DNA from: Gammaproteobacteria bacterium
GTDB taxonomy: Bacteria > Pseudomonadota > Gammaproteobacteria > UBA4575
Assembly (NCBI GenBank): GCA_033344735.1
Contig: JAWPMW010000001.1
Coordinates: 911,869-975,868, forward strand
Length of the DNA stretch: 64,000 bases
Direction of reading: 5' to 3'
In this document: positions 1,391 to 27,100 of the stretch, piece by piece
How the letters are laid out: the number at the start of each line of letters is the position of its first letter
Position numbering within the stretch: the stretch's first letter is position 1
Notes under the pieces: model-generated
What the model saw: the letters and a program-made list of their open reading frames with translations, nothing else
Told to the model about the DNA's origin: nothing
Databases searched by the model: none
Made by a program: the position numbers and the translations under genes

Positions 1391-1978
1391 TTACCCTTTG
1401 TCTGAGTCAGCATCAGCAGTCGCTAAACGCTCATACTCTTTCATAATGCCACGTAGAAAATCAACCATTTCACCTGAATTCCAATCGCGTTCACCTGTGG
1501 CCTTATAAATCAATTTACCGGAAGGGCTAATAAGAAATGTAGTTGGCAAACCTGAGACTTCCCAATTAGACAATGACATATTTTTATCAATAACAATATC
1601 GAAATCGACTGGATTATCTTTTAAAAATTGTTTTACTGTGGCTAATGCTGGACCAACATGTACACCAACCACTTTCAATCCATTGCTAGAATTTAACTTA
1701 TTATGCAAATCATTCAGCGCAGGCATTTCTTTTATGCAGGGTGGACACCAAGTTGCCCAGAAATTGAGTAGTACAAATTTACCCTCATAATCAGATAAGC
1801 TGATATCTGATCCATGCGCGCTCATAAGAGTAAAGTTTGATGCTTTTGAGCCAGATATTTTGTCCATCAAACCATCTGCATGCGACAAAGATATCATTAC
1901 AACTATGACGAAGATAAGCGCTGTTAATAGAGCACCTGATTTAACGAAATTTCTCTTACTGCTAGAACTACACTTCAT
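1391..1978 (-). CDS. TlpA/ResA-like periplasmic thiol:disulfide oxidoreductase (thioredoxin fold, WCPPC)
   Basis: NFWATWCPPCIKEMP active site with a TlpA-like flanking pattern. The signal peptide begins at the internal Met (MKCSSSSKRNFVKSGALLTALIFVIVV), so the start is proposed at 1978 rather than the ORF-track 2056. Confidence 0.75.
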   Translation of the reverse strand: MKCSSSSKRNFVKSGALLTALIFVIVVMISLSHADGLMDKISGSKASNFTLMSAHGSDISLSDYEGKFVLLNFWATWCPPCIKEMPALNDLHNKLNSSNGLKVVGVHVGPALATVKQFLKDNPVDFDIVIDKNMSLSNWEVSGLPTTFLISPSGKLIYKATGERDWNSGEMVDFLRGIMKEYERLATADADSDKG

Positions 1979-2083
1979 AATTACCGCTTTGTATTTAATA
2001 TATACGTTAGTAGAGTCAAATATTATAATTAAGTTCGTTTCGAAACACTTGGCCAACCCTTATTAGATAGCCATTTATCTGGC

Positions 2084-2626
2084 TTATTTCTCAGATACTT
2101 TAGTTTCCTCGTAATCCACAAAGACTTTCTTTAAAAAATCCACCATTGGAGGCGAATTCCACAATCTTGAGCCTACCGCTCGATAAGCAAAATTACCTTC
2201 CGGTGTCAGCAAATAGGATGTTGGCAAGCTCGGCACACCCCAATGTCCTAACTCTAAATTGATATCCATAACTACTGGGTAGCTTACTGGAGAAAGCTCT
2301 AAATGTTCATTCACGCCAATGACATCTGGACCAGCATGCACGGCAACTACCTGCAAGATATTTTCTTCAGCGAGCTGATCTAACAAGTCCTGCATTAATG
2401 ACAATTCAGTACGACATACAGTGCATTTTGTAGTCCAAAAATTTACTAATACAAACTTACCTTGCAAGTCCTCAAGATTAAATTTACCACCCGTGGAATA
2501 AGGCAGCGAAAAGTTTTCAGCATGCATGGTACGCGGCATCGCATCTAATAATCTATCCGCATTTGCTATAGAGCATACAAAAATTAAGACAATGCTAGCA
2601 ATAAATTTTAGTTTCATATCTCTCAT
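2084..2626 (-). CDS. TlpA-like periplasmic thioredoxin, second copy (CxxC = TKCTVC)
   Basis: Signal peptide MKLKFIASIVLIFVCSIANA. Thioredoxin-fold motif NFWTTKCTVCRTE and overall similarity to the neighbouring TlpA-like protein. Confidence 0.7.
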   Translation of the reverse strand: MRDMKLKFIASIVLIFVCSIANADRLLDAMPRTMHAENFSLPYSTGGKFNLEDLQGKFVLVNFWTTKCTVCRTELSLMQDLLDQLAEENILQVVAVHAGPDVIGVNEHLELSPVSYPVVMDINLELGHWGVPSLPTSYLLTPEGNFAYRAVGSRLWNSPPMVDFLKKVFVDYEETKVSEK

Positions 2627-3976
2627 CTATTTCACTTTAAATTCTGAATCATGTGCCCAGTTAGGATCTTGTGAACGAATATCACCAATAGGTGCTGCAA
2701 ATCCATCTGCCACCAGGATTTGAATATTATCGCCCGTTAAAGCATTCATAAAGTCAACCAGCTGATCTATTTCTTGTTCAGTCAAATTCAAGGGCTGTAT
2801 CAACGGACTAAGCAGCTCATTAGGCACACCACCCTGATTGTAAAACTCGACAACCTGACGCAAATTAGTAAACGCACCATCATGCATATAAGGCGCTGTA
2901 AGCGAGATATTGCGTAAGATAGGTGTTCTAAATTTCCAACGATCAAATGGGTTTTGTGTAATTGTGTATAGACCTACATCATTCTGCTTAGGTGTTTGCC
3001 GAACAGAATCTATGACTTCATTATCAACATTCACAAAAACGCCAGGCGCCAACTGCACTCGTGTTTGCTTGGGTTTAACACCCATAGAAACATTGTAGCC
3101 ATGACCTGTATTATGCAGTAATTGATCAGTGAATAATGCGTATTCCTCATTGATCAAATGACAAGCTGAACACTTAGCTTTGCCCGTAAATAGTGCAAAA
3201 CCTGCCTTTTCATCTTTGGTCAATGCATCTTCTTGTTTACCATAATACCATTGATCAAATCTTGAGTTACCTGAATTCAACGTTCTCTGGTAACTTGCTA
3301 ATGCCTCTCCCACCGTCTCCATAGTGGGGCCTTTACCATCAAAGGCTTCTTCAAACAGTCCTTCGTATTCTTTGATGCCTTTTATCTTATTGATAACATA
3401 ACCTATAGAAGGATTTGCCATTTCATTCATAGCAAGAAGTGGTGACCATACTTGTTGCTCTAAACTATCTTCTCTCCCATCGTGGAAAAATATATCGAAG
3501 TAACCCACGTTATAAATTGTTGGGCTATTGCGCTTAACACTACGACCTTCAAAACCAATTGCTGTGGCTAACTCATTATTAGCATAACCTTGTTCAGGTA
3601 TATGGCAGATAGCACAAGAGAATGTATCGTTATGAGATAAACGACGATCAAAGAAGAGCCGACGACCTAAGCTAACCTTCTCTTCAGTCACGGGATTGCC
3701 ATCAGGCATCTTCATTTTTGGCAACCCAAGAGGTGTTTGATAAACAAATTGAAGTAAGTCTGCTTGCTTACCTTTTCGCGCTGTTACACTTAGCGAATTA
3801 GTGACATAAGTTTCTTCATCATAACCATGTTTACGATCGCCTGGTCCGAATATAGCATCTTCATTAATATCTTCATTACTAGCATTAGCAATGAGAAAGG
3901 TAGATGCACTTACATATACACAACAGCCAAATAAAACTAGAATCCAGTGGCGCAATTTTAAATAATCAAGTTTCAT
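2627..3976 (-). CDS. Di-haem cytochrome c peroxidase family protein, MauG-like
   Basis: Signal peptide. Two CxxCH haem motifs (FSCAICHIP and KCSACHLIN) in the spacing typical of the bacterial CCP/MauG family, with the conserved PYMHDG and FYNQGG C-terminal region. Confidence 0.85.
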   Translation of the reverse strand: MKLDYLKLRHWILVLFGCCVYVSASTFLIANASNEDINEDAIFGPGDRKHGYDEETYVTNSLSVTARKGKQADLLQFVYQTPLGLPKMKMPDGNPVTEEKVSLGRRLFFDRRLSHNDTFSCAICHIPEQGYANNELATAIGFEGRSVKRNSPTIYNVGYFDIFFHDGREDSLEQQVWSPLLAMNEMANPSIGYVINKIKGIKEYEGLFEEAFDGKGPTMETVGEALASYQRTLNSGNSRFDQWYYGKQEDALTKDEKAGFALFTGKAKCSACHLINEEYALFTDQLLHNTGHGYNVSMGVKPKQTRVQLAPGVFVNVDNEVIDSVRQTPKQNDVGLYTITQNPFDRWKFRTPILRNISLTAPYMHDGAFTNLRQVVEFYNQGGVPNELLSPLIQPLNLTEQEIDQLVDFMNALTGDNIQILVADGFAAPIGDIRSQDPNWAHDSEFKVK

Positions 3977-3982
3977 TTCAAG

Positions 3983-4711
3983 CTAGCTATCTTGCTCTTC
4001 CATTATTAATGTTTTCAAGTCTGCAATTATAGATTGATCATGTAAAAAGCTTGCACTGTATTGGGTTCTTTTATTACCTTGCTTATCAATTAGAAACACT
4101 CTTAAAATATGTGCAAAGCTATTTGTAGGGTTCCCTTCTTCATCGTATTCTTGATTGACATATTGCCCAAAACTTTGCGTAATTGGATCTAATTCATTAT
4201 GAGATGCTGTGGTTAAAAACTGCCATTCAGGACCACCAAAGTCTTTACTTCCTTGACCATAAAATTTCATCACTTCGGGCGTGTCATATTTTGGATCGAA
4301 ACTCAAACTCACCAACCTGAGTTGGTCCGATAATTCGGGGTCGTCTTTCAATGCCTCTTTTAATTTATAGTAGACTGCTGTTACAAGCGGGCAACCATTT
4401 AAATCAGAACATTGCGTAAACATAAAGCTAAGAAGAACAACTTTATCTCCATAAAATTCTGATAGACGTTTCTGCTCGCCTTCATCTGTTAACACATCAC
4501 CGTCGGCGGCCTTTCCAAACGGAGGTAACTCATAAGTCCCAGGCTCAGGCAATTCAAATTGCATATCACCCCACCCTGGTGCATGAAGAAGAACTTGATC
4601 TTCATGACTAGACAATACCGCAGAATGTTCTGCTTCATTATCTGTTTTATCGCATCCGTATAGCGATACAATTATTAGTGAAAAACAAACCAGATATACG
4701 TTTTTCATCAT
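3983..4711 (-). CDS. SCO1/SenC-family copper chaperone (lipoprotein)
   Basis: Lipobox LYGC. Thioredoxin-like core with FTQCSDLNGCP (Cx5CP variant of the Sco CxxxCP motif) and a SFDPKYDTPEVMKFY block resembling the Sco DPxRDTP region. Confidence 0.65.
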   Translation of the reverse strand: MMKNVYLVCFSLIIVSLYGCDKTDNEAEHSAVLSSHEDQVLLHAPGWGDMQFELPEPGTYELPPFGKAADGDVLTDEGEQKRLSEFYGDKVVLLSFMFTQCSDLNGCPLVTAVYYKLKEALKDDPELSDQLRLVSLSFDPKYDTPEVMKFYGQGSKDFGGPEWQFLTTASHNELDPITQSFGQYVNQEYDEEGNPTNSFAHILRVFLIDKQGNKRTQYSASFLHDQSIIADLKTLIMEEQDS

Positions 4712-4738
4712 TCCTTTTTAATCCTCTATATAAACAAA

Positions 4739-4765
4739 AGGCCGCCTTCTAAGGCGGCCTTTTTT
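4739..4765. terminator. Bidirectional rho-independent terminator hairpin
   Basis: aaaaGGCCGCCttctaaGGCGGCCtttttt: perfect 9-bp GC-rich stem flanked by A-run and T-run, 50 nt downstream of the mtoX stop (minus strand). Confidence 0.6.
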
Positions 4766-4816
4766 ATTTACAGCTTTTACGTTTACGTAATAAACGCTAG
4801 CCTAACCTCGGTTCAA

Positions 4817-6196
4817 TTATTTATCTACTTGAGACAACATTGTATCCGAAGAGTTCGGCTTTTGAGAGTAAAGCGAATAAGCGCCAAATCTCATTTGGTG
4901 TGCACGACCTAACTTCAATTGATAGAAGTCGATTGTGAACTGATGATCCAGTTTCTTACCATTCCAATGGAACAGTTTGAACCATTGCTCATCATCTTTA
5001 CCAGTCTTATCCCAGTTACCTAACAAGGAAGTAGTGAAGTAAGCACGCTTACCATCCCAGCTTTGAGAGATCATGTTCACTTGTGAACCAATTTGATGCT
5101 CATATGTTTGCTTAGGATTGTGTGGGTCACTGATGTCAAAGTAACGTGTCTTTCCGTCCATGAAAGTTTGAACCCAAAGACCTTGGTCATCAGCGGTGAT
5201 TGAGATATCAACAGGAAGAGGCACTTTTGAAGGATCGCCGATGTCAGCAACTTCCTCTGCTTGCCACTCACCATCTTTGTCTTCATAAACCAACCAGATT
5301 TTTGAAGTCAGAGCAGTTGTAGTAAAACAGAAGTTGTTAAGTCCAGACCATGCACAACGAATTTCTAAAGGTGCACCTGGTACATCAAATACCTTCTTAG
5401 GCTTACGAGTGTGCAAGTCCCAAAGTACCATTGTGTTACCAAAACGTTTCATAGCTTCTGGATCAGACAACATTTGACCGAAGTCCATCATGTAGTTTGA
5501 CCAACCAGTAAATGAAGAAGTTAACATCACGTTGCGTCGTGGAAGCACTCGCACATCGTATCCATAACCGTCAGCAAAATTACCAGTCTTGTTAGCACCA
5601 CGAAGATCGTCGTCAGTTGGGAACCAGTGTGCAGAAACGAAGTCGCCTTCACTAGTGTACTCGGCCATACCAGTTCGACCACCATGGTCTACATTGTTAG
5701 ACAGGGCAGATACCATAATACGTCCAGGTAATGCATAGAAAGTATGAGGGCCAACCATGCCACCAGTCTTGTCAACAAAGTCAGTGATCACTTTGTGAAG
5801 GCTAGGCTGACGTGGATTTGAATGGACATCAAAAATAAAGATCTTGTTGCTATCTAAGCCACCTGCCCATAAATAGCGACGGTCATCAGATAAACCAGAG
5901 TGATGAGCTTCGTTACGACCGCCCACTGAAACGATATGGACAACTTCACCATAATCATCAGCATCTGGGTTTACAGAAATTGTCACAAGCTTATCTTGCT
6001 CGTCACCCAATCCTTCAACACCTAACGTCCATACATATACATAATCTTCCTGGCCAACAATCTTAGCCATGTAAGGTGACATGCATGTCTCATCAGCTTG
6101 AACAGCTGCAGGCATTCCACCAACTAATGCTACTGCACTGATTAATGCTGAAGCTACTGTGCCTCTTGCCCATTTAAAAGGAAGCATTTTTTTCAT
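4817..6196 (-). CDS. mtoX: Methanethiol oxidase, selenium-binding protein 56 (SBP56) family, periplasmic
   Basis: Signal peptide. Full-length similarity to SELENBP1/MtoX (PSLHKVITDF, RYFDISDPHNPKQ, GKRAYFTTSLLGNWDKTG blocks). Flanked by SCO1 and MauG-like genes as in described mtoX loci. Confidence 0.85.
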   Translation of the reverse strand: MKKMLPFKWARGTVASALISAVALVGGMPAAVQADETCMSPYMAKIVGQEDYVYVWTLGVEGLGDEQDKLVTISVNPDADDYGEVVHIVSVGGRNEAHHSGLSDDRRYLWAGGLDSNKIFIFDVHSNPRQPSLHKVITDFVDKTGGMVGPHTFYALPGRIMVSALSNNVDHGGRTGMAEYTSEGDFVSAHWFPTDDDLRGANKTGNFADGYGYDVRVLPRRNVMLTSSFTGWSNYMMDFGQMLSDPEAMKRFGNTMVLWDLHTRKPKKVFDVPGAPLEIRCAWSGLNNFCFTTTALTSKIWLVYEDKDGEWQAEEVADIGDPSKVPLPVDISITADDQGLWVQTFMDGKTRYFDISDPHNPKQTYEHQIGSQVNMISQSWDGKRAYFTTSLLGNWDKTGKDDEQWFKLFHWNGKKLDHQFTIDFYQLKLGRAHQMRFGAYSLYSQKPNSSDTMLSQVDK

Positions 6197-6553
6197 TGTT
6201 TAAACTCCATAAATTTTACTAATTAAAGTAGATCTAATCTCGAATCAAGATACACAAATGGTAACGGCTTAGATCCACATAAACACACACCCACGGATGG
6301 GCTAACCAAAATCCAGTTCGATGTGCGACATTATGCCGCATCTAGCCCGACTATCAAGTTCTAATAAGATACTAGTTGTCATACATCAATTGAACGTAAG
6401 ATACTAAATTAGCTCGACTTATAGGTATATTCACTCAAACTGAGTGGATTTCTGAAATTAGACCCTTTTTGGTGCATTTATGACCTATATAGAGAGAAAC
6501 TGTCTAGCAGACTTATAGTCTTAAAAGTATAAATTCAACCTAAATCTTAAATT

Positions 6554-7129
6554 ATGGACATTTATAAAATTATCAAGCCATCTAGCCGCACAGCATATGC
6601 ATTTATCCTATGTGTTTTGTTGTCAGCTGGCCAGGTAAATGCAGCCAAATTGGGAGGTGAATTTGAGTTAACCTCCCACAAAGGAGAAACTTTTAGACTC
6701 AGTGATATTAAAGGGAAAGTTGGAATTATATTCTTTGGATTTACCCATTGCCCAGATGTATGTCCTAATACCCTGCTAGAAATCCAGCGTTTAATCATCA
6801 ACTTAGAAGACCAAGCAAAGCACTTAAAAGTACTCTTTATTAGCGTAGATCCTAAGAGAGATACTCCAAGTAAATTAAATAGTTATGTAACATACTTCAA
6901 CAAAAATATTATTGGTCTAACTGGCTCTCAAGAAGACATCGCTAAAGTACTTAAACAATTTAATGCTAGCGTAAAATTTAGCGGTGATACGAGCTCAGAA
7001 ACTTATAATGTAGAACACACCGCGAATATTTTTCTTATCAATAAGCAAGGCGACATTGGCAGCATCATTCTTCCTCGAACCCCCTTTAAAGTATTAGAGC
7101 AACAAGTACGCAAATTGATCTCAGAGTAA
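6554..7129 (+). CDS. SCO1/SenC-family copper chaperone
   Basis: Canonical FGFTHCPDVCP (CxxxCP) motif and SVDPKRDTP block. Signal peptide. Divergent from mtoX. Confidence 0.85.
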   Translation: MDIYKIIKPSSRTAYAFILCVLLSAGQVNAAKLGGEFELTSHKGETFRLSDIKGKVGIIFFGFTHCPDVCPNTLLEIQRLIINLEDQAKHLKVLFISVDPKRDTPSKLNSYVTYFNKNIIGLTGSQEDIAKVLKQFNASVKFSGDTSSETYNVEHTANIFLINKQGDIGSIILPRTPFKVLEQQVRKLISE

Positions 7130-7670: not shown

Positions 7671-9347
7671 ATGGACAAAGCAGTCACGCGCAAACGGAAT
7701 AAAATGAGGGGAGAGAAACGTGGAAGAAGCGTTAATCCTCTGGCTTTACAACAAGTTCGTGAATTATTAGGTGACATGCCCATTCGGCGCGACCTATTAA
7801 TTGAATATTTACATTTAATTCAGGATAAATATTTCCATATCTCTGCCGACCATATGACGGCATTAGCAAGTGTCATGAAATTAGCGACGACAGAAGTATA
7901 CGAAGTCGCATCTTTCTATCATCACTTTGATTTAGTCAAAGAAGGTCATCATGCTCCACCAGAACTAACCATCAGAGTATGCGATTCGGTTAGTTGCGAA
8001 ATGAATGATGCAAAAGCAATTATTAACACACTTGGAGGTAAATATAACGGTGAAATTCGCGTTCAACCTGTGCCATGTGTAGGACGTTGCGAACAAGCTC
8101 CAGTTGCGGTTGTAGGGACTAATGCAATTCCGTATGCAAACATAGATAAGATTGTCGCTGCGGTAGATAAAAATGAAAAAGAAGCTGTCGCACCTGCCTG
8201 CATTAATTTTGAAGAATACAAAAAGGATGGCGGTTATCAAACCTTATCTAAATTAATTAATGGTTCACTTTCTAAAGAAGATGTCATAACTACATTAGAA
8301 GATTCAAACTTACGTGGCTTAGGTGGCGCTGGATTCCCCGCAGGTAGAAAGTGGAGAATTGTAGGCGACCAACCTGCACCAAGAATTATGGCTGTTAATA
8401 TCGATGAAGGAGAACCAGGCACCTTCAAAGATCGTTACTATCTTGAAAGAGATCCACACAGATTTTTAGAAGGCATGTTAATTGCCGCATACGTTGTTGG
8501 CACTGATGCTATTTATATTTACTTGCGAGATGAATACGCTGGTGTACGCAAAGCATTAACCAGTGAATTAGAAAAGTTAAAAGCGGGTCTACCGCACGAA
8601 CTCCCTCATATTGAATTAAGGCGTGGTGCTGGCGCATATATTTGTGGTGAAGAATCAGCAATGATTGAATCCATAGAAGGCAAACGTGGTATGCCTCGTT
8701 TACGACCTCCATTTGTTGCACAAGTTGGTGTATTTGGACGCCCTACCCTTGAACACAATATGGAAACTCTTTATTGGGTACGAGATTTAATTGAACGTGG
8801 TGCGGAATGGTTCACATCGAACGGAAGACACGATCGTAAAGGATTACGTTCATTCTCTGTCAGCGGACGTGTAAAAAATCCCGGCGTGCATTTAGCTCCA
8901 GCAGGAATCACAGTTAAAGAATTAATCGATGAGTTTTGTGGCGGAATGCTGGAAGGTCATGAATTTTATGGTTACTTTCCTGGGGGTGCTTCTGGTGGAA
9001 TTCTTCCCGCATCCATGGGCGACATTCCAATGGACTTTGATACACTCAATGAATACGGATGCTTTATTGGTTCAGCAGCAGTAATGATTTTCTCAAATCA
9101 AGACAGTGCAAAACAGTTAGCACATAACGCAATGAAATTTTTCTCGCATGAATCATGCGGTAAATGTACACCATGCCGAGTTGGCACTTCCAAAGCAGTT
9201 ATGTTGATGGATAAAGATGATTGGAACCAACCATTAATGAAAGAACTTTCTCAAACCATGAATGACGCTTCCATTTGCGGTTTAGGTCAAGCAGCATCGA
9301 ACCCAATGCAATGCGTCATCAATTATTTTCCAGAAGAATTGAAATGA
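7671..9347 (+). CDS. fdsB: NAD-dependent formate dehydrogenase beta subunit with fused N-terminal NuoE-like (gamma) [2Fe-2S] domain and NuoF-like NAD/FMN/[4Fe-4S] domain
   Basis: N-terminal Cys cluster CDSVSC...CVGRC (NuoE-like). GLGGAGFPAGRKW and ESCGKCTPCR motifs of the NuoF/FdsB family. Confidence 0.85.
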   Translation: MDKAVTRKRNKMRGEKRGRSVNPLALQQVRELLGDMPIRRDLLIEYLHLIQDKYFHISADHMTALASVMKLATTEVYEVASFYHHFDLVKEGHHAPPELTIRVCDSVSCEMNDAKAIINTLGGKYNGEIRVQPVPCVGRCEQAPVAVVGTNAIPYANIDKIVAAVDKNEKEAVAPACINFEEYKKDGGYQTLSKLINGSLSKEDVITTLEDSNLRGLGGAGFPAGRKWRIVGDQPAPRIMAVNIDEGEPGTFKDRYYLERDPHRFLEGMLIAAYVVGTDAIYIYLRDEYAGVRKALTSELEKLKAGLPHELPHIELRRGAGAYICGEESAMIESIEGKRGMPRLRPPFVAQVGVFGRPTLEHNMETLYWVRDLIERGAEWFTSNGRHDRKGLRSFSVSGRVKNPGVHLAPAGITVKELIDEFCGGMLEGHEFYGYFPGGASGGILPASMGDIPMDFDTLNEYGCFIGSAAVMIFSNQDSAKQLAHNAMKFFSHESCGKCTPCRVGTSKAVMLMDKDDWNQPLMKELSQTMNDASICGLGQAASNPMQCVINYFPEELK

Positions 9348-9379: not shown

Positions 9380-12139
9380 ATGGCAGCTAACCCAAAAGAT
9401 TTAAAAGAATTAAAAACGGTTGAGTTCTCGTTAAACGGAGAAAAAATTCACGCGTTTGAAGATGAAACAATTTTACAAGCAGCACGAAGAAACGGCATAG
9501 AAATTCCACATTTATGTTATACCGATGGCATGCGCGCTGATGGCAACTGTCGTGCTTGTGTTGTTGAGATTGAAGGTGAACGTGTTTTACAACCATCGTG
9601 TGTTCGTACTCCAACTGAAGGCATGGTTGTTAGTACTGAAAATGACCGCGTTCTACATTCACAAAAAATGGTGCTTGAATTATTACAGTCAGACATCGTC
9701 GATAAAAAATATACTTTAAATAGCGAGCTTGATGAATGGTCACAAAAACTTGAAATTGGCTTGCCACGTTTTGAATCACGTCATAATCCTGAACAAGATC
9801 TATCTCACCCAGCAATTGCTGTAAATTTAGATGCTTGCATTCAATGCACACGTTGTTTACGTGCCTGCCGAGAAGAGCAGAACAATGATGTAATTGGCTA
9901 CGCTAACCGTGGTTCACATTCTGAAATTGTGTTTGATATAGCGGATCCGATGGGTGATAGCTCATGTGTCGCTTGCGGAGAATGTGTGCAGGCTTGTCCG
10001 ACGGGCGCTCTGATGCCATCAAAAGAATTAGGCCTGCAGGAACCAGACAAAAAAGTAGATTCAACCTGCCCTTACTGTGGTGTTGGCTGTTTACTTACAT
10101 TCAACATCAAAGATGAAAAAATTATTTACGTTGAAGGCCGCGATGGTCCCGCCAATAAGGGGCGGCTATGTGTCAAAGGGCGCTATGGTTTCGATTACAT
10201 CCATAATGAGCGTCGTTTAACCAAGCCTTTAATTCGCAAAGAAGGTGCAGCTAAAGTGACAGACATTGAAAATCTCTCGCAAGATGAGATTAGTGCAATG
10301 TTTAGAGAAGCCACTTGGGATGAAGCATTAGAGTTTGCTGCTAAAGGTCTTCGAGATATTCGTGATGACCTTGGTGGCAATGCACTAGCAGGCTTTGGTT
10401 CTGCTAAAGGCTCAAACGAAGAAGCCTACTTATTCCAGAAACTAATTCGCACTGGCTTCAAGACTAACAACGTTGATCACTGTACACGTTTGTGTCATGC
10501 CTCTTCTGTTGTCGCATTACTAGAAGGTTTGGGTTCAGGTGCAGTTTCCAATCAAGTTGCTGAGGTTGAAGACGCAGAAGTAATTTTAATTATTGGCTCA
10601 AACCCAACGACCAACCACCCAGTGGCTGCGACATTCATCAAGAATGCTGCGCGTGATGGTAAAAAATTAATCGTTATGGACCCTCGCCGCACTGAGATTG
10701 CACGTCACGCAGATTATGTATTGCAATTCAAACCAGACACAGATGTTGCCATGCTAAATGCCATTATGCATTCCATTGTTAAACAAGGCTTAGTGGATAA
10801 AGACTTTATTGAAAAACGTACAGAAGGTTATGCTGAACTTGAAGAACATCTAAAAGATTTCTCTCCTGAAGAAATGGAAAAAATCTGTGGCGTTCCTGCA
10901 GAAACATTACACGAGGTAGCACGAGTTTATGCATCTTCTAAAGCATCAATTATTTTCTGGGGCATGGGTGTTTCACAGCACATTCATGGCACCGATAATG
11001 CACGTTGTTTGATTGCATTATCATTAATTACCGGCCAGATTGGCAAACCCGGTTCTGGTTTACATCCCTTGCGCGGTCAAAACAATGTGCAAGGCGCATC
11101 AGATGTGGGCTTAATTCCAATGGTTTTCCCTGATTATCAACGTGTGGATAACCCAGAGGCACAGGCTAGATTTGAAAAACTTTGGGACACCCAATTAGAT
11201 CCTAACCCAGGGTTAACCGTAGTAGAGATCATGGACGAAATCACTGATGGCAAAATTTTAGGTATGTACGTTGAAGGAGAAAACCCTGCAATGTCTGACC
11301 CCAACTTAAACCACGCGCGTAAAGCCTTAGCATCACTAAAACATTTAGTCGTACAAGACATATTTATGACTGAGACCGCATTATTTGCTGATGTAGTTCT
11401 CCCAGCCTCTGCTTTCCCCGAGAAAGATGGCTCGTTTACCAATACTGATCGTCGCGTACAACTTGGACGCCAAGCAGTTAACCCACCAGGTGAGGCCAAA
11501 CAGGACTTGTGGATAATCCAAGAGATAGCCAAACGTTTAGACTGTGATTGGAACTATTCAAGTCCAAGTGACGTATTTGCAGAGATGCGTTTAGGTATGG
11601 ACTCAATTAAAGGCATGTCGTGGGAACGCTTAGAACAAGACAATTCAATCACATATCCATGTGATACCCCTGAAGATCCGGGTCAAGGCATTATATTTAT
11701 TGATGACTTCCCTACTGCAAGCGGTAAAGGCAAATTAGTGCCAGCCAAGTTTACTAATGCTGATGAATTACCTGATAGCGAATATAGTTTTGTATTAATC
11801 ACTGGCCGTCAATTAGAACATTGGCATACTGGTGCAATGACGAGACATGCATCAATGTTGGACGCAATTGAACCAGTACCAGTGGCATCAATTAACCCAA
11901 AAGATCTAGAGAAATTAGGATTAAAACCAAACGAAATGATCCGTTTAAGCTCACGTCGTGGCAGCATTGAATGTTATTCGCGTGTTGATAGTGGTTTGAG
12001 ACAAGGCCAAGTATTCATGCCATTCTGTTATCATGAAGCAGCTGCTAACCTATTAACGACAGATGCACTAGATCCGTTTGCTAAAATTCCAGAATTTAAA
12101 TTCTGTGCAATCAAATTAGGTCCGGTCGAAAAACATTAA
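9380..12139 (+). CDS. fdsA: NAD-dependent formate dehydrogenase alpha subunit (molybdopterin, NuoG-like N-terminal Fe-S domains)
   Basis: N-terminal 2Fe-2S (CYTDGMRADGNCRAC), two 4Fe-4S motifs (CIQCTRCLRAC, CVACGECVQACP) and a molybdopterin domain with HCTRLCHASS. 919 aa. Confidence 0.9.
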   Translation: MAANPKDLKELKTVEFSLNGEKIHAFEDETILQAARRNGIEIPHLCYTDGMRADGNCRACVVEIEGERVLQPSCVRTPTEGMVVSTENDRVLHSQKMVLELLQSDIVDKKYTLNSELDEWSQKLEIGLPRFESRHNPEQDLSHPAIAVNLDACIQCTRCLRACREEQNNDVIGYANRGSHSEIVFDIADPMGDSSCVACGECVQACPTGALMPSKELGLQEPDKKVDSTCPYCGVGCLLTFNIKDEKIIYVEGRDGPANKGRLCVKGRYGFDYIHNERRLTKPLIRKEGAAKVTDIENLSQDEISAMFREATWDEALEFAAKGLRDIRDDLGGNALAGFGSAKGSNEEAYLFQKLIRTGFKTNNVDHCTRLCHASSVVALLEGLGSGAVSNQVAEVEDAEVILIIGSNPTTNHPVAATFIKNAARDGKKLIVMDPRRTEIARHADYVLQFKPDTDVAMLNAIMHSIVKQGLVDKDFIEKRTEGYAELEEHLKDFSPEEMEKICGVPAETLHEVARVYASSKASIIFWGMGVSQHIHGTDNARCLIALSLITGQIGKPGSGLHPLRGQNNVQGASDVGLIPMVFPDYQRVDNPEAQARFEKLWDTQLDPNPGLTVVEIMDEITDGKILGMYVEGENPAMSDPNLNHARKALASLKHLVVQDIFMTETALFADVVLPASAFPEKDGSFTNTDRRVQLGRQAVNPPGEAKQDLWIIQEIAKRLDCDWNYSSPSDVFAEMRLGMDSIKGMSWERLEQDNSITYPCDTPEDPGQGIIFIDDFPTASGKGKLVPAKFTNADELPDSEYSFVLITGRQLEHWHTGAMTRHASMLDAIEPVPVASINPKDLEKLGLKPNEMIRLSSRRGSIECYSRVDSGLRQGQVFMPFCYHEAAANLLTTDALDPFAKIPEFKFCAIKLGPVEKH

Positions 12140-12154
12140 CCTAGATGTATCCTT

Positions 12155-12189
12155 CCAATCTCTGAGGTAGCAAATATGCCAGAGATTGG
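12155..12189. terminator. Stem-loop (10-bp perfect stem, 15-nt loop) just after the fdsA stop, possible terminator
   Basis: CCAATCTCTG-aggtagcaaatatgc-CAGAGATTGG. No clear T-tract follows, so intrinsic-terminator status is uncertain. Confidence 0.35.
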
Positions 12190-12213
12190 TAATTCTCCCA
12201 TTGAAATTACCCT

Positions 12214-12242
12214 ACCTTATATAAAGTTAAATTATATAAGGT
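12214..12242. promoter_or_regulatory. Perfect 11-bp inverted repeat (ACCTTATATAA-n7-TTATATAAGGT), candidate operator upstream of the His-rich protein gene
   Basis: Seen directly in sequence, about 160 bp upstream of the ORF at 12403. Confidence 0.3.
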
Positions 12243-12402
12243 ATTTCAATGTCAACCAATTAGCTTCTTCTTCGTTATAAGCAGTAAGAATTGTCGTTTT
12301 ATTACGATCTATTTCTTAAGCGCATTAAACTAAATAATTCACCATACGTTTAGTGCAGTCTTAAAATTTATGCCTTCGCAAAAGGCTTAAGGAGATTTAG
12401 CG

Positions 12403-12711
12403 ATGTCGATAAATTTCACCAAATCAACAACAATAGCTGGAACGGTATTATTACTTTCTTTATCTACTAGCAGTTTTGCTAGCGGCATCTATGGAAGTGT
12501 TGGATATGGACATCACCCTATCCATATAGTGGTCGGTTACAATGGACATGGTAAACATTATGGCCATAGACGCCATCACTACAAGCACTACAATCATAAA
12601 AGGCATTACAACCATCATAGACGTCATTACTATAAGCATGCTTACAATTACGGGCACAAAGCTCGTCACCATTATAATCAACCTAGAAAATATTGCAGAT
12701 CTGGATATTAA
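12403..12711 (+). CDS. Secreted His/Tyr/Gly-rich highly basic small protein (102 aa), putative metal-binding
   Basis: Signal peptide MSINFTKSTTIAGTVLLLSLSTSSFA followed by repeats of HYxH/RHHY/GHG. About 25% His. RBS aaggag 6 nt upstream. Followed by a terminator. Confidence 0.5.
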   Translation: MSINFTKSTTIAGTVLLLSLSTSSFASGIYGSVGYGHHPIHIVVGYNGHGKHYGHRRHHYKHYNHKRHYNHHRRHYYKHAYNYGHKARHHYNQPRKYCRSGY

Positions 12712-12734: not shown

Positions 12735-12764
12735 AAAAAAGGCAAACTTAACGTTTGCCTTTTT
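12735..12764. terminator. Bidirectional rho-independent terminator between the His-rich gene (+) and folP (-)
   Basis: aaaaaaGGCAAACttaacGTTTGCCttttt: stem flanked by A-run and T-run. Confidence 0.7.
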
Positions 12765-12788: not shown

Positions 12789-13616
12789 TTATTTACACAT
12801 TTTAATTGCATAACTAACATCTGCAGCCTGACGATTCTGCCAAACATCATGCACTCTAAATATTTTAACTCCTGCTTCTACACCTAATGCTGTAGTAGCA
12901 CAGGTTGCTGGCATGCGCTGCGACGGATCTTCAGTCGCACACACTTCACTCATAAATCGCTTTCGACTTGTACCTAACAATACAGAATAATCTGTTTCGC
13001 AAATTTGATTAAGCTGGTTTAACAATTCAAGATTATGTTGGGTACGCTTACCAAAACCAATTCCAGGATCCAAAATAATATTATTTTTAGATAGCCCTAA
13101 ATCTTGTATTTTTAATGCTTGCGTGACTAAGAATTCTTTAACTTCTTTTGCAGCATTAACATAACTCGGATTATCTTGCATATTATCTGGGCGACCTTGC
13201 ATATGCATAATGCAATATGGCACATTGCGTTCAGCAACTAGTTTCATAAGATTTGCATCGTCAGTACCACCTGTCACGTCATTAACAAATCCAGCCCCTG
13301 CATCTAAAGCTGCTTCTGCGACATCACTTAATGTAGTATCAATGCTAATAAGCACATCATCAGAAATTTCCTGAGATAAAGCAGAAATGACATCTAATAC
13401 ACGTCGCTTTTGTTCTACAGCATCAACACGCTCAGAACCGGGACGAGTAGACTCTCCACCAATATCAATAATATCTGCACCTTCATCCACCATCTCCAAA
13501 CCGCGTGCAACAGCATCTCGTGTACTTACATACCTTCCTCCATCTGAAAAACTATCGGGAGTGACATTTAATATGCCCATTATTAACGGACTTTGCTTAT
13601 ATAGAAGTTTACTCAT
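12789..13616 (-). CDS. folP: Dihydropteroate synthase
   Basis: GILNVTPDSFSDGG N-terminus and Pterin-binding domain motifs. 275 aa. Confidence 0.9.
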   Translation of the reverse strand: MSKLLYKQSPLIMGILNVTPDSFSDGGRYVSTRDAVARGLEMVDEGADIIDIGGESTRPGSERVDAVEQKRRVLDVISALSQEISDDVLISIDTTLSDVAEAALDAGAGFVNDVTGGTDDANLMKLVAERNVPYCIMHMQGRPDNMQDNPSYVNAAKEVKEFLVTQALKIQDLGLSKNNIILDPGIGFGKRTQHNLELLNQLNQICETDYSVLLGTSRKRFMSEVCATEDPSQRMPATCATTALGVEAGVKIFRVHDVWQNRQAADVSYAIKMCK

Positions 13617-17943: not shown

Positions 17944-18092
17944 AGCTATTCTCCTTCAAAAAAGCAGCTTTTTGTATTAGTAGTCTCACTTATGCTTGAT
18001 TCTTATATATTCCATTAGAATCATGATTCATTCCATTTTACGAATCACTTTACTACTGACAAAACCGACTAACGAAAAGTTCTCAAATAATT

Positions 18093-20388: not shown

Positions 20389-20415
20389 TATGACTATTTT
20401 GAGTCAATGAAGTTC
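20389..20415 (-). promoter_or_regulatory. Candidate sigma-E-dependent (autoregulated) promoter of rpoE
   Basis: Minus strand reads GAACTT-n16-TCATA, matching the sigma-E consensus GGAACTT-n16-TCnnA, about 40 nt upstream of the proposed rpoE start. Confidence 0.4.
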
Positions 20416-24153: not shown

Positions 24154-27100
24154 TTAAAATGCTTGAATTAGATTAAGTCTAACACCACTAATTTGAGTAT
24201 TATCTTCACGAAGGAAGAATGTTACTACGTGTTGCCCTGGTGTAAGATTAAGTGTTACCGCACCACTCTCTCCTCGGTTTGTAACAAGTGTAGGCACAAA
24301 TGAACTATAGTGTTGTCCTGTATCCCATAAGTATGGTGTTGATGGACCACCATCAACTTGGACAAAGAATGAATCTGAGCCAAAGCTATTTGCAAAAATA
24401 TCTGCTTCTATTTGATAGAGTCCTGCAGTTGTAACATTAAATGTAAACTGCGCTGATCCAGTACTTGGCGTGAAACTATAGTAATCACCAAATGATTCTG
24501 GCACGTGTATGTACTGGCCATTTGCAGCTAACACAAAGGCACCTGATAAACTTGCAGAACTAGCAGGCAAATCTAGTACTTCAGGACCACCACCAGTATC
24601 AGCCTCAACTGTAATAGACACCGCTGCGCTGGTTGTCGTGGCTGCTTCATTATCTGTCACTACTGCTGTCAAGCTATACGCACCTTCAGTCGCACCATTC
24701 CAAGTAAAGCTGTATGGTGCAGTGATGTCACTACTTAACAATGTTGTTCCAGCATAAAAATCTACACTGGTAACACTACCGTCACTATCTGAAGCAGATG
24801 CTGTAATGTTTATTGTATCACCGACAGTAAATGTTGCATTCGCGGCAGGTGCTGTAATCACTACTGTAGGATCAACATTAGCTGGCACCGTAACCGTGAT
24901 ATCAATTGCCACACTTGTAGTGGTCGCGGCTTCATTATCAGTCGCAACTGCTGTCAAGCTGTGAGCACCTTCAGTCGCACCATTCCAAGTGAAACTATAT
25001 GGCGCAGTAGTGTCTGTACTTAACAATGTTGCTCCGTCATAAAAATCCACACTTGTTACAGTACCATCACTATCCGATGCAGATGCTGTGATGTTTATTG
25101 CATCGCCTAGAGTAAATGTCGCGTTTGCGGCAGGTGCTGTAATCGCTACTGTAGGATCAACATTAGCTGCCGGAGTATTTACATTGATATTTATAGCTGC
25201 ACTTGTAGTGGTCGCGGCTTCATTATCTGTCGCAATTGCTGTCAAGCTGTGAGCACCTTCAGTCGCACCATTCCAAGTGAAGCTATATGGTGCAGTGGTA
25301 TCTGTACTTAATAGTATTGCTCCATCATAAAAATCTACACTGGTAATACTACCGTCACTATCTGAAGCAGATGCTGTAATGTTTATTGCATCACCCACAG
25401 TGAATGTTGCATTCGCAGCAGGTGCTGTAATCGCTACTGTAGGATCAACATTAGGTGGCGGTGTTACCGTGATATTAACATCACCACTTACAGAAACATC
25501 ACCATCATCATCAGTTGCAACCGCAGTGACTATATGTGCACCCTCTGCAGCACCATTCCAGGTAAAGCTATATGGCGCAGTGGTATCTGTGCTTAACAAT
25601 ATTGCTCCATCATAAAACTCTACACTTGTTACAGTGCCGTCACTATCTGAGGCATCAGCAATTAAGGTAATAGCGTTACCAAAAACAAATGATGCATTGT
25701 CGGATGGTGCCGTTAAATTTACAGTTGGTTCAATATTTGGAATTGGCTGATTGACGCTGATATTAACTATCGCACTTGTCGTTGCCGCCCCTTCATTGTC
25801 AGTTGCAACTGCAGTCAAGCTATGAGCACCTAATGATGCTCCATTCCAAATGAAGCTGTAAGGCGCATTAACATCGGTACTTAACAACGTGGCACCATCA
25901 TAAAACTCAACACTTATAATTGAACCACCTGGATCTGTTGCATCAGCAGTTAATGAAATAGCGTCACCGACAGTATAGGTAGCATTTGCTATAGGCGCAG
26001 TAAGGCCTACTGTTGGCGCAACATTTTGAGATGGTTGATCTAGGATTAGTTTTACGTTACTTAACTGAGTACCAGATTCTCGATGGTAAAAAGTTACGAC
26101 ATGCTCACCTGCTGATAAATTAACAGTCACTGGATCAGTTTCACCACGATTAATGATCAGTAGAGGTGTGAAAGTATTCTGTATTTCCGTATCCCATAAA
26201 TAAGGTGTATTTGGCACACCATCAACACGAATATAAAATGAATCCGACGTATCATCATTAGCTAGTACCGTTGCCTCAATCTGATATGTCCCCGCAGTCA
26301 CAACATTAAATGTAAACTCTGCATAACCTGCACTTATTCCAAAGTCATAGGCAGGTTCGATATTTTGTGGAACCTCGATAAACTGATTATCAGGAGAAAG
26401 TGCAAATGCTCCAAATATAACTGCATCTTGAGCTGCCTGCTCTAAAACCTCTAAACCTGTATCGCCGAATGGTGTTTCATCAGCATTATCACCAATACCA
26501 TCACCATCGGTATCTTGTGTTTCCGTTGGATCATTCGGGAATACATCACTGTTATCACCAACACCGTCACCATCGGTATCTTGTGTTTCTGTTGGATCAT
26601 TCGGGAATGCATCTTCTGTATCTAGAACGCCATCACCGTCACTATCTATAAAGCTAGCTTGTTCTAGGTAAGCAGACAATTGATCAAGTTCTGTAGAACT
26701 TAAGGTTACAGTATTATGCGCACTAATCGCTTCAGCAACAGTTTGTGCCGAGCCGTCATGTAAATAAGGTGCAGTCTTAAAGATACCAAGCAATGTTGGA
26801 GTATCAAAGCCATCAAGAGTTGACCCTAAACGTTGGCCACTAGCGGTATCAATTGTGCCAATATCATGCAATAGAGCTTGCTCAGAATCTGTCAACAAAA
26901 TCCCAGTATGGCAACTTGTACAACCACTATTATTAAATACAATTTCACCCGCGATTGCTTCAGCTGTCATATCAACCGCAGCAACGGCATATGGATTGGC
27001 AGGTATTTCAGTCAATGAATTCACGTAAGCGGCTAATGCATCAAGATCAGCACTAAGACCTGCCTTTGGAATACCCAGCGTGTCGCTAGTTGCAGTAAAA

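Follow-up and report, generated by a model that had tools for sequence, protein, structure and literature searches.

Our analysis revealed that a 64,000-nucleotide stretch of a gammaproteobacterial genome (hereafter the window) encodes a small protein which, judging from its sequence and those of its homologues, belongs to a conserved but unnamed family of exported proteins rich in His and Tyr. The family is new here, as is the putative ECF-sigma-type promoter that is conserved ahead of its genes. The gene is real and under purifying selection. A role of its product as a metal-ion buffer or sink in the cell envelope is possible, and we propose it tentatively.

The gene and its product

The open reading frame (ORF) extends from an ATG at position 12403 to position 12711 on the plus strand and encodes 102 residues. 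It is flanked by fdsA (9380-12139, plus strand) and folP (12789-13616, minus strand). A preliminary description of this DNA had reported a secreted, basic, His/Tyr-rich protein of this length between the formate dehydrogenase (FDH) genes and folP, with its own ribosome-binding site and terminator. The ORFs of the window, the composition and signal-peptide features of the protein, and the AAGGAG and hairpin listed below confirm these points. The features of the locus are as follows.

12155-12251, plus strand: two strong hairpins 3' of the fdsA stop codon (12155-12189 and 12199-12251), from folding
12251-12276, plus strand: putative ECF-sigma-type promoter, with -35 element GTCAACC (12251-12257), 15-nt spacer and -10 element CGTT (12273-12276)
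12277-12402, plus strand: 5' leader, about 125 nt long if transcription starts from the ECF-type promoter
12285-12318, plus strand: conserved leader hairpin TAAGAA..TTCTTA, accompanied by a second weak leader hairpin
12372-12386, plus strand: small hairpin GCCTTCGCAAAAGGC beside the Shine-Dalgarno sequence
12389-12394, plus strand: Shine-Dalgarno sequence AAGGAG, 8 nt before the ATG; GAGG or AGGAG in all orthologues
12403-12480, plus strand: Sec-type signal peptide, residues 1-26 (MSINFTKSTTIAGTVLLLSLSTSSFA), predicted cleavage after SFA
12481-12567, plus strand: N-terminal block of the mature protein (SGIYGSVGYGHHPIHIVVGYNGHGKHYGH), the family signature, conserved in 29 sequences
12568-12660, plus strand: predicted disordered, fast-evolving tail rich in His, Tyr, Arg and Lys, with degenerate [K/R]-H-(H)-Y units
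12661-12711, plus strand: C-terminal block RHHYNQPRKYCRSGY with the single Cys, then the stop codon; kept in all full-length orthologues
12736-12764, bidirectional: intrinsic terminator hairpin with A-run and U-run flanks, common to the convergent folP

Comparison of orthologues indicated that synonymous sites are saturated (dS), with dN of 0.07-0.29 and omega, where computable, of 0.06-0.18. Because dN is low while dS is saturated, the gene is genuine. Only 2 of the 281 ORFs of at least 40 residues in the window have a higher His+Tyr fraction. Both are out-of-frame and located inside a repetitive 2486-residue gene. A 73-residue ORF on the minus strand (12460-12681) overlaps the His/Tyr gene, and overlapping ORFs are present in other frames as well.

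The signal peptide carries one Lys in its n-region, and the hydropathy profile shows its hydrophobic core. Ser-Phe-Ala occupies positions -3 to -1 and is followed by SG. These features agree with cleavage by signal peptidase I after Ala26, which would give a mature part of 76 residues. The assignment is based on the -3/-1 rule, the sole AlphaFold helix and an architecture shared by all homologues; each family member begins with a comparable signal peptide ending in xHA, xFA or xQA. Counted on the 75 residues after Ser27, the mature part contains 18 His (24%), 14 Tyr (18-19%), 13% Gly, 11% Arg and 8% Lys. It contains one Cys and neither Asp nor Glu. It carries a net charge of about +14 at pH 8, which rises to about +30 at pH 5.5.

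The mature protein is predicted to be intrinsically disordered. AlphaFold, run with 7 and with 29 sequences, produced low-confidence models with mean pLDDT values of 49.6 and 52.8, and the only helix in either model is the signal peptide (residues 3-25 in one, 3-24 in the other). The N-terminal block has the consensus (V/I)(Y/F)G(N/S/K)(V/I/L)GYxxxPxx(I/V)x(I/V)G(Y/H). In the 29 sequences G31, G34 and P39 are invariant, and Y35 and G45 nearly so. Its dN is lower than that of the middle region. The tail has pLDDT values below 55, indels among orthologues and dN up to 0.53. Most family members have a single Cys, located near the C-terminus or after the N-terminal block. We considered the N-terminal block as an outer-membrane beta-hairpin and rejected this, as Pfam and the structure models gave no support.

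A rare family in marine metagenomes

A search for homologues, suggested in the preliminary description, found about 29 clusters among 5.8 billion proteins. All have the same architecture: a signal peptide, a conserved block and a basic His/Tyr-rich tail. The family profile recovered the window protein with E = 6.5e-38. A 1656-residue match (P0012) was discarded, as its score was summed over 16 unrelated repeats. Family members were found only in uncultured, mostly marine metagenome-assembled genomes (MAGs) and metagenomes, including Tara and TMED assemblies. Look-ups of LepA and of the clusters led to Gammaproteobacteria/Pseudomonadota MAGs and gave no lifestyle evidence for an acid-exposed intracellular niche.

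Neither the window protein nor the 29 family members have a significant match in Pfam or NCBIfam (best NCBIfam E = 1.3), and a PDB profile search with the family gave no match. The earlier statement that no standard annotated family resembles the protein thus holds for these collections. His-rich loops of RcnA and ZIP transporters gave sub-threshold matches only. In the literature we found no described His/Tyr-rich periplasmic protein of the present type.

Some genomes contain a tandem paralogue. In this paralogue B, YG(H/N)R(N/S)RYYGKRYY repeats predominate and His makes up only 7-14%; its homology is nevertheless clear (E = 1e-16). In some relatives the gene is lost or frameshifted.

The motif grammar of the family is non-random. 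The repeats described earlier as HYxHxRHHY-like are present at the peptide level, as a degenerate [K/R]-H-(H)-Y motif; TRF found no tandem repeat at the DNA level. Family-wide, in counts that are inflated by relatedness of the sequences and by internal duplications, [K/R]HHY occurs 54 times against 5.6 expected, HxH 58 times against 120 expected, HH pairs 125 times against 122 expected, and HY 139 times against 23 for YH. Therefore HH is not enriched beyond composition. The mature window protein has four HH pairs and no HxH.

A conserved putative promoter and a probable separate transcription unit

The motif GTCAACC-N15/16-CGTT is found at 24 loci (about 17 distinct sequences) in both subfamilies, despite their different neighbourhoods. 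In aligned orthologous upstream regions GTCAACC and CGTT are invariant. The sole locus with upstream sequence that does not contain the motif is L024. In 325 kb, 24 of the 34 matches to TCAAC-N16-18-CGTT precede family genes (shuffles, 7.1 +/- 2.1), and the motif is not found upstream of other window genes. ECF promoters have an AAC / CGT architecture (PMC5758882). In the family motif the -35 element contains AAC, and the -10 element, about 16 nt away, is of the CG(T) type. Both are conserved among orthologues, which points to a promoter of this type.

RpoE is not the likely regulator. The sigma-E motif GAACTT-N16/17-TCNNA precedes rpoE on the minus strand (20415-20389), and a reading of the sequence places it ahead of degP as well (about 18079-18051, also minus strand). 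The His/Tyr gene is not preceded by it. RpoE control was rejected because the family motif differs from these sigma-E promoters. No ECF gene besides rpoE is present in the window. The family promoter resembles GTAACC-N16-CGAA, the site of the Caulobacter ECF sigma factor sigma-F. Sigma-F responds to heavy metals (PMC3511200) and controls bufferins, which are periplasmic copper chelators (PMC11626156). This likeness does not assign a sigma factor, since many ECF groups have AAC and CG(T) elements.

The region between fdsA and the promoter is strongly structured, with a folding energy of -34 kcal/mol (z = -5.45) for positions 12140-12260. Equivalent hairpins follow fdsA at L002, L005 and L007. 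They likely mark the end of the FDH transcript and separate the His/Tyr gene from it. In the leader, 18 base pairs are predicted, 8 of them with compensatory changes, and the consensus energy is weak (-7.8 kcal/mol). The hairpin beside the Shine-Dalgarno sequence folds no better than shuffles (z = -0.14). A search of the gene flanks against Rfam gave nothing at threshold, and sub-threshold small RNA matches over the terminator only. The terminator has a 12-bp stem with a folding energy of -14.7 kcal/mol (z = -6.03); none of 200 shuffles reached this stability. A simple terminator scan missed this hairpin, which was detected by folding against shuffles.

A possible metal sink in the envelope

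We propose that the Sec pathway exports the protein to the cell envelope, where the signal peptide would be removed, as suggested by its sequence. The mature protein of about 76 residues would be a disordered polycation that combines a hydrophobic/aromatic block, the [K/R]-H-(H)-Y tail and a near-terminal Cys. Its gene would form a transcription unit separate from the FDH genes. A dedicated ECF-type sigma factor other than RpoE appears to drive the promoter, and an extracytoplasmic stress signal would switch expression on, as an ECF-type promoter implies. The protein may then serve as a high-capacity, low-specificity periplasmic sink for transition-metal ions. Copper is the first candidate ligand, through adjacent His pairs and possibly Tyr or Cys, and Zn and Ni are possible. 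Such a sink could shield the envelope, or it could store metal that exported metalloenzymes need. For the sigma factor, the inducing signal and the ligand, we can only infer.

The preliminary description called the composition typical of metal buffering. The composition itself and the base rate for secreted His-rich proteins agree with this; the avoidance of HxH, the absence of carboxylates and the charge of about +14 do not. A metal role is favoured by the 24% His of the mature protein, by its four HH pairs and by the enrichment of [K/R]HHY in the family. Two further points are circumstantial. The first is the similarity of the promoter to the sigma-F site, an analogy with Caulobacter. The second is that, at the single locus L016, the family member P0034 immediately precedes a cluster of bufferin (copper-metallophore) genes, made up of two BufA2 genes, BufB and an HvfC-like gene. 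We looked for the family promoter at these bufferin genes and did not find it, so a shared promoter was rejected. Against a metal role, HxH is depleted and HH is not above composition. The absence of Asp and Glu and the positive charge also disfavour cation binding. The predicted mature N-terminus (SGI...) has no ATCUN motif.

SmbP, which has a Sec signal peptide, is a periplasmic protein of about 10 kDa that binds Ni(II), Cu(II), Zn(II) and Fe(III) (PMC7137794). It is a precedent for a small Sec-exported periplasmic metal binder, the kind of role proposed earlier for the window protein, and no sequence relationship with it was detected through PDB, Pfam or NCBIfam. SmbP folds as a helical repeat protein and contains acidic residues. 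The present protein differs in being predicted disordered, without acidic residues, Tyr-rich and HxH-avoiding. A composition without acidic residues and a charge of +14 is also unlike that of Hpn, UreE tails or ZnuA His tracts. It is nearer to histatins, Asr or adhesive proteins than to SmbP, Hpn or UreE tails.

Bufferins (BufA1/DUF2282 and the BufA2/BUF_6/12Cys copper metallophores) are likewise small Sec-exported envelope proteins. They are Cys-rich (4, 6 or 12) and predicted to be folded, and their thiooxazoles form only with the help of a neighbouring MNIO and a DUF2063 partner. The present protein has one Cys and does not match the BufA models, which the BufA2 proteins at L016 match with E = 5e-38. 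MNIO (DUF692) and DUF2063 genes are found neither in the window nor at orthologous loci, and are adjacent only at L016.

Polycation, condensate and antimicrobial alternatives

The main alternative, which we consider rather unlikely, is that charge and aromatic residues, not metal chelation, carry the function. The protein would bind polyanions (LPS, phospholipid head groups, peptidoglycan, exopolysaccharide, eDNA or polyphosphate) as an envelope protectant or adhesive. Its charge would climb steeply on His protonation, much as in Asr (a disordered periplasmic chaperone), the His-rich region of histidine-rich glycoprotein or coacervate-forming adhesives rich in Tyr, Arg and Lys. The hydrophobic block would anchor it or drive self-association. 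The charge at both pH values, the absence of acidic residues, the predicted disorder and the Tyr- and Arg/Lys-rich tail agree with this, as do the low His content of the homologous paralogue B and the avoidance of the chelating HxH spacing. An envelope-stress role would also suit the ECF-type promoter. However, acid stress is no obvious selective force in a marine lineage (Tara and TMED assemblies), and the strong preference for HY over YH is not needed for pure charge or cation-pi binding. The searches linked the protein neither to Asr nor to another known envelope protein by homology, and a Sec signal by itself is insufficient to cross the outer membrane for external action.

Among the likened proteins, Asr, the acid-shock periplasmic protein of E. 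coli, is also small, Sec-exported, basic and disordered. It is Lys/Ala/Gln-rich with few Tyr, is acid-induced and has its own Pfam family. No Pfam match was found even at E <= 10, and no NCBIfam match. Unlike Asr, the present gene is apparently ECF-type regulated, in a marine organism. The mussel adhesives mfp-3 and mfp-5 are small, secreted, basic, disordered and rich in Tyr and Gly. Paralogue B is closest to them, in a likeness of composition only; unlike them, the family has no adjacent tyrosinase or other DOPA-forming enzyme and no route over the outer membrane. The GHHPH repeats of histidine-rich glycoprotein have a parallel in GHHPIH in the N-terminal block.

It is also conceivable, if improbable, that these are unrecognised ECF-controlled, Sec-exported, disordered His/Tyr/Arg proteins that condense on a metal or pH trigger in the periplasm or at the surface. 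They would be bacterial counterparts of histatins and mussel-foot-type proteins, with [K/R]HHY as the functional unit and the N-terminal block as an anchor.

We give little credence to a histatin-like cationic antimicrobial or competition peptide, possibly metal-potentiated, that would leave the cell, or be cleaved at its numerous basic sites, and act on competitors or a host. The protein shares with histatins a cationic, disordered, His/Tyr/Lys/Arg-rich composition with His pairs beside basic residues and Tyr, including KRHH-type motifs, and local matches were seen. Histatins bind Cu and Zn. In histatin-5 each bis-His motif binds one Cu(I), and copper buffering has been proposed as a physiological role; cleavage by proteases exposes further N-termini that bind Cu(II), among them RHH- and KHH- (bioRxiv 10.1101/2022.01.07.472205). 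The gene is also accessory, lost or frameshifted in close relatives, as competition factors commonly are, and it has tandem paralogues with fast-evolving tails. But the match to histatin 3 is not significant (best BLASTP E = 0.36), and these human salivary peptides are unrelated by descent. The present protein is three times longer, starts with SGIYG without an N-terminal ATCUN, and has conserved non-repetitive terminal blocks that suggest a defined cellular interaction. With a Sec signal alone it would stay periplasmic. The neighbourhoods do not consistently contain an immunity gene, a dedicated exporter or a processing protease. A MatE gene adjoins the long subfamily, and this is synteny inside one clade.

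Genomic neighbourhood

The gene is directly downstream of fdsB-fdsA in the window and at L002/L006, L005, L007/L019 and L031. At L001, L008 and L017, genes for a carbamoyltransferase, an SxtJ-like protein or a GDSL-type protein are located between FDH and the His/Tyr gene. L030 keeps FDH and folP without the gene. The distant subfamily has another neighbourhood and is never found beside FDH; its 433-residue neighbour is a coiled-coil protein of the cytoplasm to which nothing in the window is related, and so gives no information. The intervening genes and the placement of the distant subfamily elsewhere argue that the gene has no FDH function. The adjacency thus appears from gene order to be incidental and without functional meaning, and we rejected a functional FDH link because of the variable synteny.

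The same variation largely refutes, as very unlikely indeed, capture or storage of molybdate or tungstate oxyanions for the adjacent Mo/W-dependent formate dehydrogenase. The position directly downstream of fdsB-fdsA at several loci agrees with it, and an Arg/Lys/His/Tyr-rich protein without acidic residues would suit anion binding. The strong hairpins and the separate promoter between fdsA and the gene speak against it, as do the intervening genes, L030 and the distant subfamily.

Against a metal role, the loci do not share a neighbouring gene for a metal transporter, a chaperone or a metal-sensing regulator. In its favour, exported copper-related proteins are encoded elsewhere in the window: four SCO1/SenC-like proteins, a protein like SBP56 methanethiol oxidase and one with a galactose/glyoxal-oxidase-like domain.

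That the ORF is a non-functional product of chance in AT-rich intergenic DNA, or the shadow of an opposite-strand feature, has next to no chance of being right: low-complexity composition, the absence of an annotated family and the overlapping ORFs would allow it, but this reading is already refuted by the conservation pattern, with low dN against saturated dS in the His/Tyr gene frame, a signal peptide and terminal blocks kept at 57-81% identity between loci and kept in the distant subfamily too, and a conserved Shine-Dalgarno sequence, promoter and terminator all oriented for the plus strand.

Implications

Small exported disordered proteins are nearly invisible to annotation pipelines, and the group of uncultured marine Gammaproteobacteria that carries this family is widely sampled in marine assemblies. 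If the protein buffers copper or another trace metal, it would be a new genetically encoded, unmodified metal-handling protein of the envelope, beside SmbP, CusF and the bufferins, and a possible marker of metal stress in ocean metatranscriptomes. If instead its charge and sticky aromatic residues carry the function, it would be a polycation of the histatin, Asr or adhesive kind, rarely seen in bacteria. Should the proteins condense on a metal or pH trigger, they and a sigma/anti-sigma pair would make up a small and hitherto undescribed stress regulon of abundant uncultured marine Gammaproteobacteria. On either a metal or a polycation reading, the promoter motif offers a handle on the responsible sigma factor and its regulon.

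The gene and its product

The ORF lies at 12403-12711 on the forward strand, where the preliminary description had placed it, and has 102 codons beginning with ATG. Its N-terminus, MSINFTKSTTIAGTVLLLSLSTSSFA followed by SG, has the tripartite layout of a Sec signal peptide, also proposed earlier, with Ser-Phe-Ala at positions -3 to -1. The mature part, cut after Ala26, would have 76 residues. The -3/-1 rule, the sole helix in the predicted models and the conserved architecture argue for export. The His/Tyr-rich, basic composition holds: the 75 residues after Ser27 are 24% His, 19% Tyr, 13% Gly, 11% Arg and 8% Lys, with one Cys and no Asp or Glu. The mature protein has a computed charge near +14 at pH 8, which rises to about +30 at pH 5.5. 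AlphaFold models based on 7 or 29 sequences reach a pLDDT near 50 and have the signal peptide as their only secondary structure, suggesting that the mature protein is most likely intrinsically disordered. The gene does have its own ribosome binding site (AAGGAG, 8 nt upstream of the ATG) and its own terminator, a 12-bp hairpin at 12736-12764 (dG -14.7 kcal/mol, z = -6.0). An A-run and a U-run border this hairpin, which serves both this gene and the convergent folP.

The homologue search suggested earlier did find relatives. An indexed word search of 5.8 billion proteins returned the window protein and seven relatives with 66-81% identity. Against 1.84 billion representatives, exhaustive profile searching yielded only 13 matches, one of them spurious, and a profile search of a larger collection gave 29 clusters, none of which is named or has a Pfam domain. 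In codon alignments of five orthologues, synonymous change is saturated, dN is 0.07-0.29, and omega, where computable, is 0.06-0.18. The middle region evolves faster than the N-terminal block. The ORF is a real gene under selection; that it is not a gene is hardly conceivable. Overlapping ORFs in the other frames are by-products of composition.

Architecture of the family

All family members consist of a signal peptide, a conserved block and a basic tail. The block reads (V/I)(Y/F)G(N/S/K)(V/I/L)GYxxxPxx(I/V)x(I/V)G(Y/H), with G31, G34 and P39 invariant. Most members have exactly one Cys at one of two alternative positions, either near the C-terminus (YCRSGY, RRSCRY, NYCRR) or directly after the N-terminal block (GPSCGHG). 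There are two subfamilies. Proteins of the window clade are about 100 aa long, lack acidic residues and end in RHHYNQPRKYCRSGY. Those of the long subfamily have 140-170 aa and an Arg/Asp-rich tail at the end.

The tails contain 22% His, 21% Arg and 16% Tyr, together with much Gly and Lys. Their residue order is far from random when compared with shuffles. Across the family, [K/R]HHY occurs 54 times (5.6 expected) and HY 139 times (85 expected), YH is reduced to 23 (85 expected) and HxH to 58 (120 expected; none in the window protein), and HH pairs are not enriched (125 observed, 122 expected). The motif z-scores are inflated by relatedness and internal duplications, and the bias has the same direction across subfamilies of merely 30-40% identity. 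The tail unit is basic-His-(His)-Tyr, whereas classical chelating tracts follow an HxH or poly-His pattern. No tandem repeat is found at the DNA level in the window gene.

Several genomes contain a second, tandem family gene, paralogue B. Its signal peptide is of the same type, and its repeats read YG(H/N)R(N/S)RYYGKRYY. With E = 1e-16 it is a homologue of the window protein, yet just 7-14% of its residues are His. It is not present in the window or at two orthologous loci (L007, L008). The following copies, of 104-114 aa and with a YGYVPLALAAGY block, are directly 3' of the family gene, and none has an ECF-type motif of its own.

Paralogue B genes
L001 7308-7637
L002 8537-8851
L005 8543-8869
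L020 402-746

A conserved upstream motif

In aligned orthologous upstream regions, GTCAACCAA...CGTT is invariant and the surrounding DNA is poorly conserved. Family genes of the distant subfamily are also preceded by GTCAACC-N15/16-CGTT(G/A)T, 57-66 nt from the ATG; the distance is 142-156 nt in the window clade. The 325 kb compared contain 34 matches to TCAAC-N16-18-CGTT, of which 24 directly precede family genes; the other 10 are in line with the shuffle expectation (7.1 +/- 2.1). Among loci with upstream sequence, only L024 lacks the motif. A TCAACC-N16-CGTT match also occurs inside the fdsB coding sequence (window 8063-8088; L002 and L006 3686-3711), most likely a coincidence kept by coding constraint and no promoter.

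ECF-sigma promoters usually have AAC at -35 and a group-specific -10 element, often CGT (PMC5758882). The family motif is a conserved putative promoter of this ECF type, distinct from the sigma-E type. The window contains two canonical sigma-E promoters:

20389-20415, minus strand, GAACTT-N16-TCATA, before rpoE
about 18051-18079, minus strand, GAACTT-N17-TCAGT, before degP

These RpoE promoters are unlike the family motif, which implies that a different ECF sigma factor would drive the family gene. The rpoE promoter lies inside the mechanically listed 222-aa rpoE ORF. The true start is therefore probably further downstream, and the product probably has about 191 aa, the length found in L029 and L031.

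The closest published site retrieved is that of Caulobacter sigma-F, GTAACC-N16-CGAA, which the putative family promoter resembles in its -35 element and spacing. Sigma-F responds to chromium and cadmium stress (PMC3511200) and controls operons of the periplasmic copper-chelating bufferins (PMC11626156; PMC3511200). The likeness is suggestive only, because many ECF groups have the same elements.

If this promoter is used, the 5' leader in the window clade is about 125 nt long. Its two hairpins (12285-12318 and 12323-12365) have compensatory changes in 8 of 18 pairs among eight orthologues, with weak consensus energy, and no Rfam match was found for the leader. It could be a regulatory leader.

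Genomic context, gain and loss

The gene does lie between the NAD-linked formate dehydrogenase (FDH) genes and folP; the order is fdsB-fdsA, His/Tyr gene, folP, MBL-fold gene, lepA, degP and rseB-rseA-rpoE. Two strong hairpins are found 3' of fdsA. The folP side is kept in all orthologous loci and the FDH side is variable; carbamoyltransferase, SxtJ-like or GDSL-type genes separate FDH from the family gene in L001, L008 and L017. The syntenic site is empty in two relatives, and the gene is kept in a third whose LepA is 92% identical.

Empty folP-proximal sites, with neither family gene nor promoter motif
L029 8596-8946, LepA 90% identical
L030 8577-9033, LepA 86% identical

The family gene has thus been gained and lost within the clade. 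At L008 8001-8262, on a complete 2.16-Mb metagenome-assembled chromosome (OX638335), a 1-nt frameshift interrupts the orthologue after ...GHKR, and its middle region is shortened; reading on in the +1 frame gives HYKHHNHKRH...YNQPRRYCKSEY. Either this copy is a pseudogene, or the assembly has an error in a homopolymer. The two empty sites and the frameshift indicate an accessory gene. The LepA relatives are all marine metagenome-assembled genomes, including Tara and TMED assemblies, and some family-bearing contigs may be sediment-derived.

Long-subfamily genes (L009, L010, L012, L015, L021-L023, L025-L027) lie beside a divergent gene for a 433-aa cytoplasmic coiled-coil protein, with a MatE transporter gene 3' in most. 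No neighbor is common to both subfamilies. Near L009, L010 and L012 are a Chalcone_3/DUF3833/SnoaL/SDR/amine-oxidase cluster and an OmpR-type two-component system. At L024 6402-6917, directly 3' of the family member, a small ORF encodes another exported protein; its 171 aa include much His, Tyr, Asp and Arg, and it lacks the N-terminal family block.

In L016 3449-7253, one B-type protein, P0034, is encoded directly 5' of genes for two BufA2-type bufferin precursors with 12 Cys each, followed by genes for a BufB MNIO maturase and an HvfC-like protein. A duplicated remnant of the P0034 3' end, together with its terminator, at about 4720-4900 indicates tandem duplication of the P0034 tail and bufA2.

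The window itself contains these genes:

1391-2056, 2084-2626, 3983-4711 and 6554-7129, four SCO1/SenC- or redoxin-like genes
2627-3976, MauG-like di-haem peroxidase
4817-6196, minus strand, SBP56 (methanethiol-oxidase-like)
24154-31614, minus strand, 2486-aa exported protein
31886-33118, minus strand, MauG-like peroxidase adjoining the 2486-aa gene

The group at 1391-7129 resembles a gene cluster for the maturation of methanethiol oxidase, a copper enzyme. In the 2486-aa protein, PA14 and several Big_7 Ig domains accompany a glyoxal/galactose-oxidase-like domain bearing Kelch motifs and a cytochrome c region of MauG/RoxA-like type. Two very His/Tyr-rich ORFs on the plus strand (26469-26651 and 28599-28727) were rejected as out-of-frame artefacts of its repeats.

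Possible functions

As described earlier, the protein is outside standard annotated families. All homology tests against known systems were negative, and membership in SmbP, histatins, Asr or bufferins was rejected. Bufferins are defined by several Cys and by neighboring MNIO and DUF2063 genes; the window protein has neither. It may work like one of these by analogy.

The best single reading, held tentatively, is a periplasmic metal sink that would take up metal ions, copper foremost. Secreted His-rich proteins of bacteria that have been characterised are mostly metal-related. SmbP is a precedent, and bis-His sites in histatin-5 bind Cu(I). The resemblance of the putative promoter to the sigma-F site, the family member adjoining a bufferin cluster and several exported copper-related genes within 12 kb in the window also point to a sink. 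The depletion of HxH spacing, the lack of carboxylates with a large positive charge, the absence of an ATCUN motif and the lack of any conserved metal-handling neighbor argue against it.

The main rival, a lesser possibility, is a polycation that binds polyanions and acts as an envelope protectant or glue, as Asr does; the low-His, Tyr/Arg-rich paralogue B favors it. A histatin-like antimicrobial role is improbable, and capture of Mo/W oxyanions for FDH very improbable. The remaining probability is assigned to functions outside those listed.

Exported, disordered His-rich proteins are already known as a general kind; neither this sequence family nor its promoter seems to have been described before. 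There is a slim chance that they represent a new class of ECF-controlled envelope proteins forming condensates or adhesives. We infer that an extracytoplasmic signal triggers production of the protein and that its site of action is the envelope.
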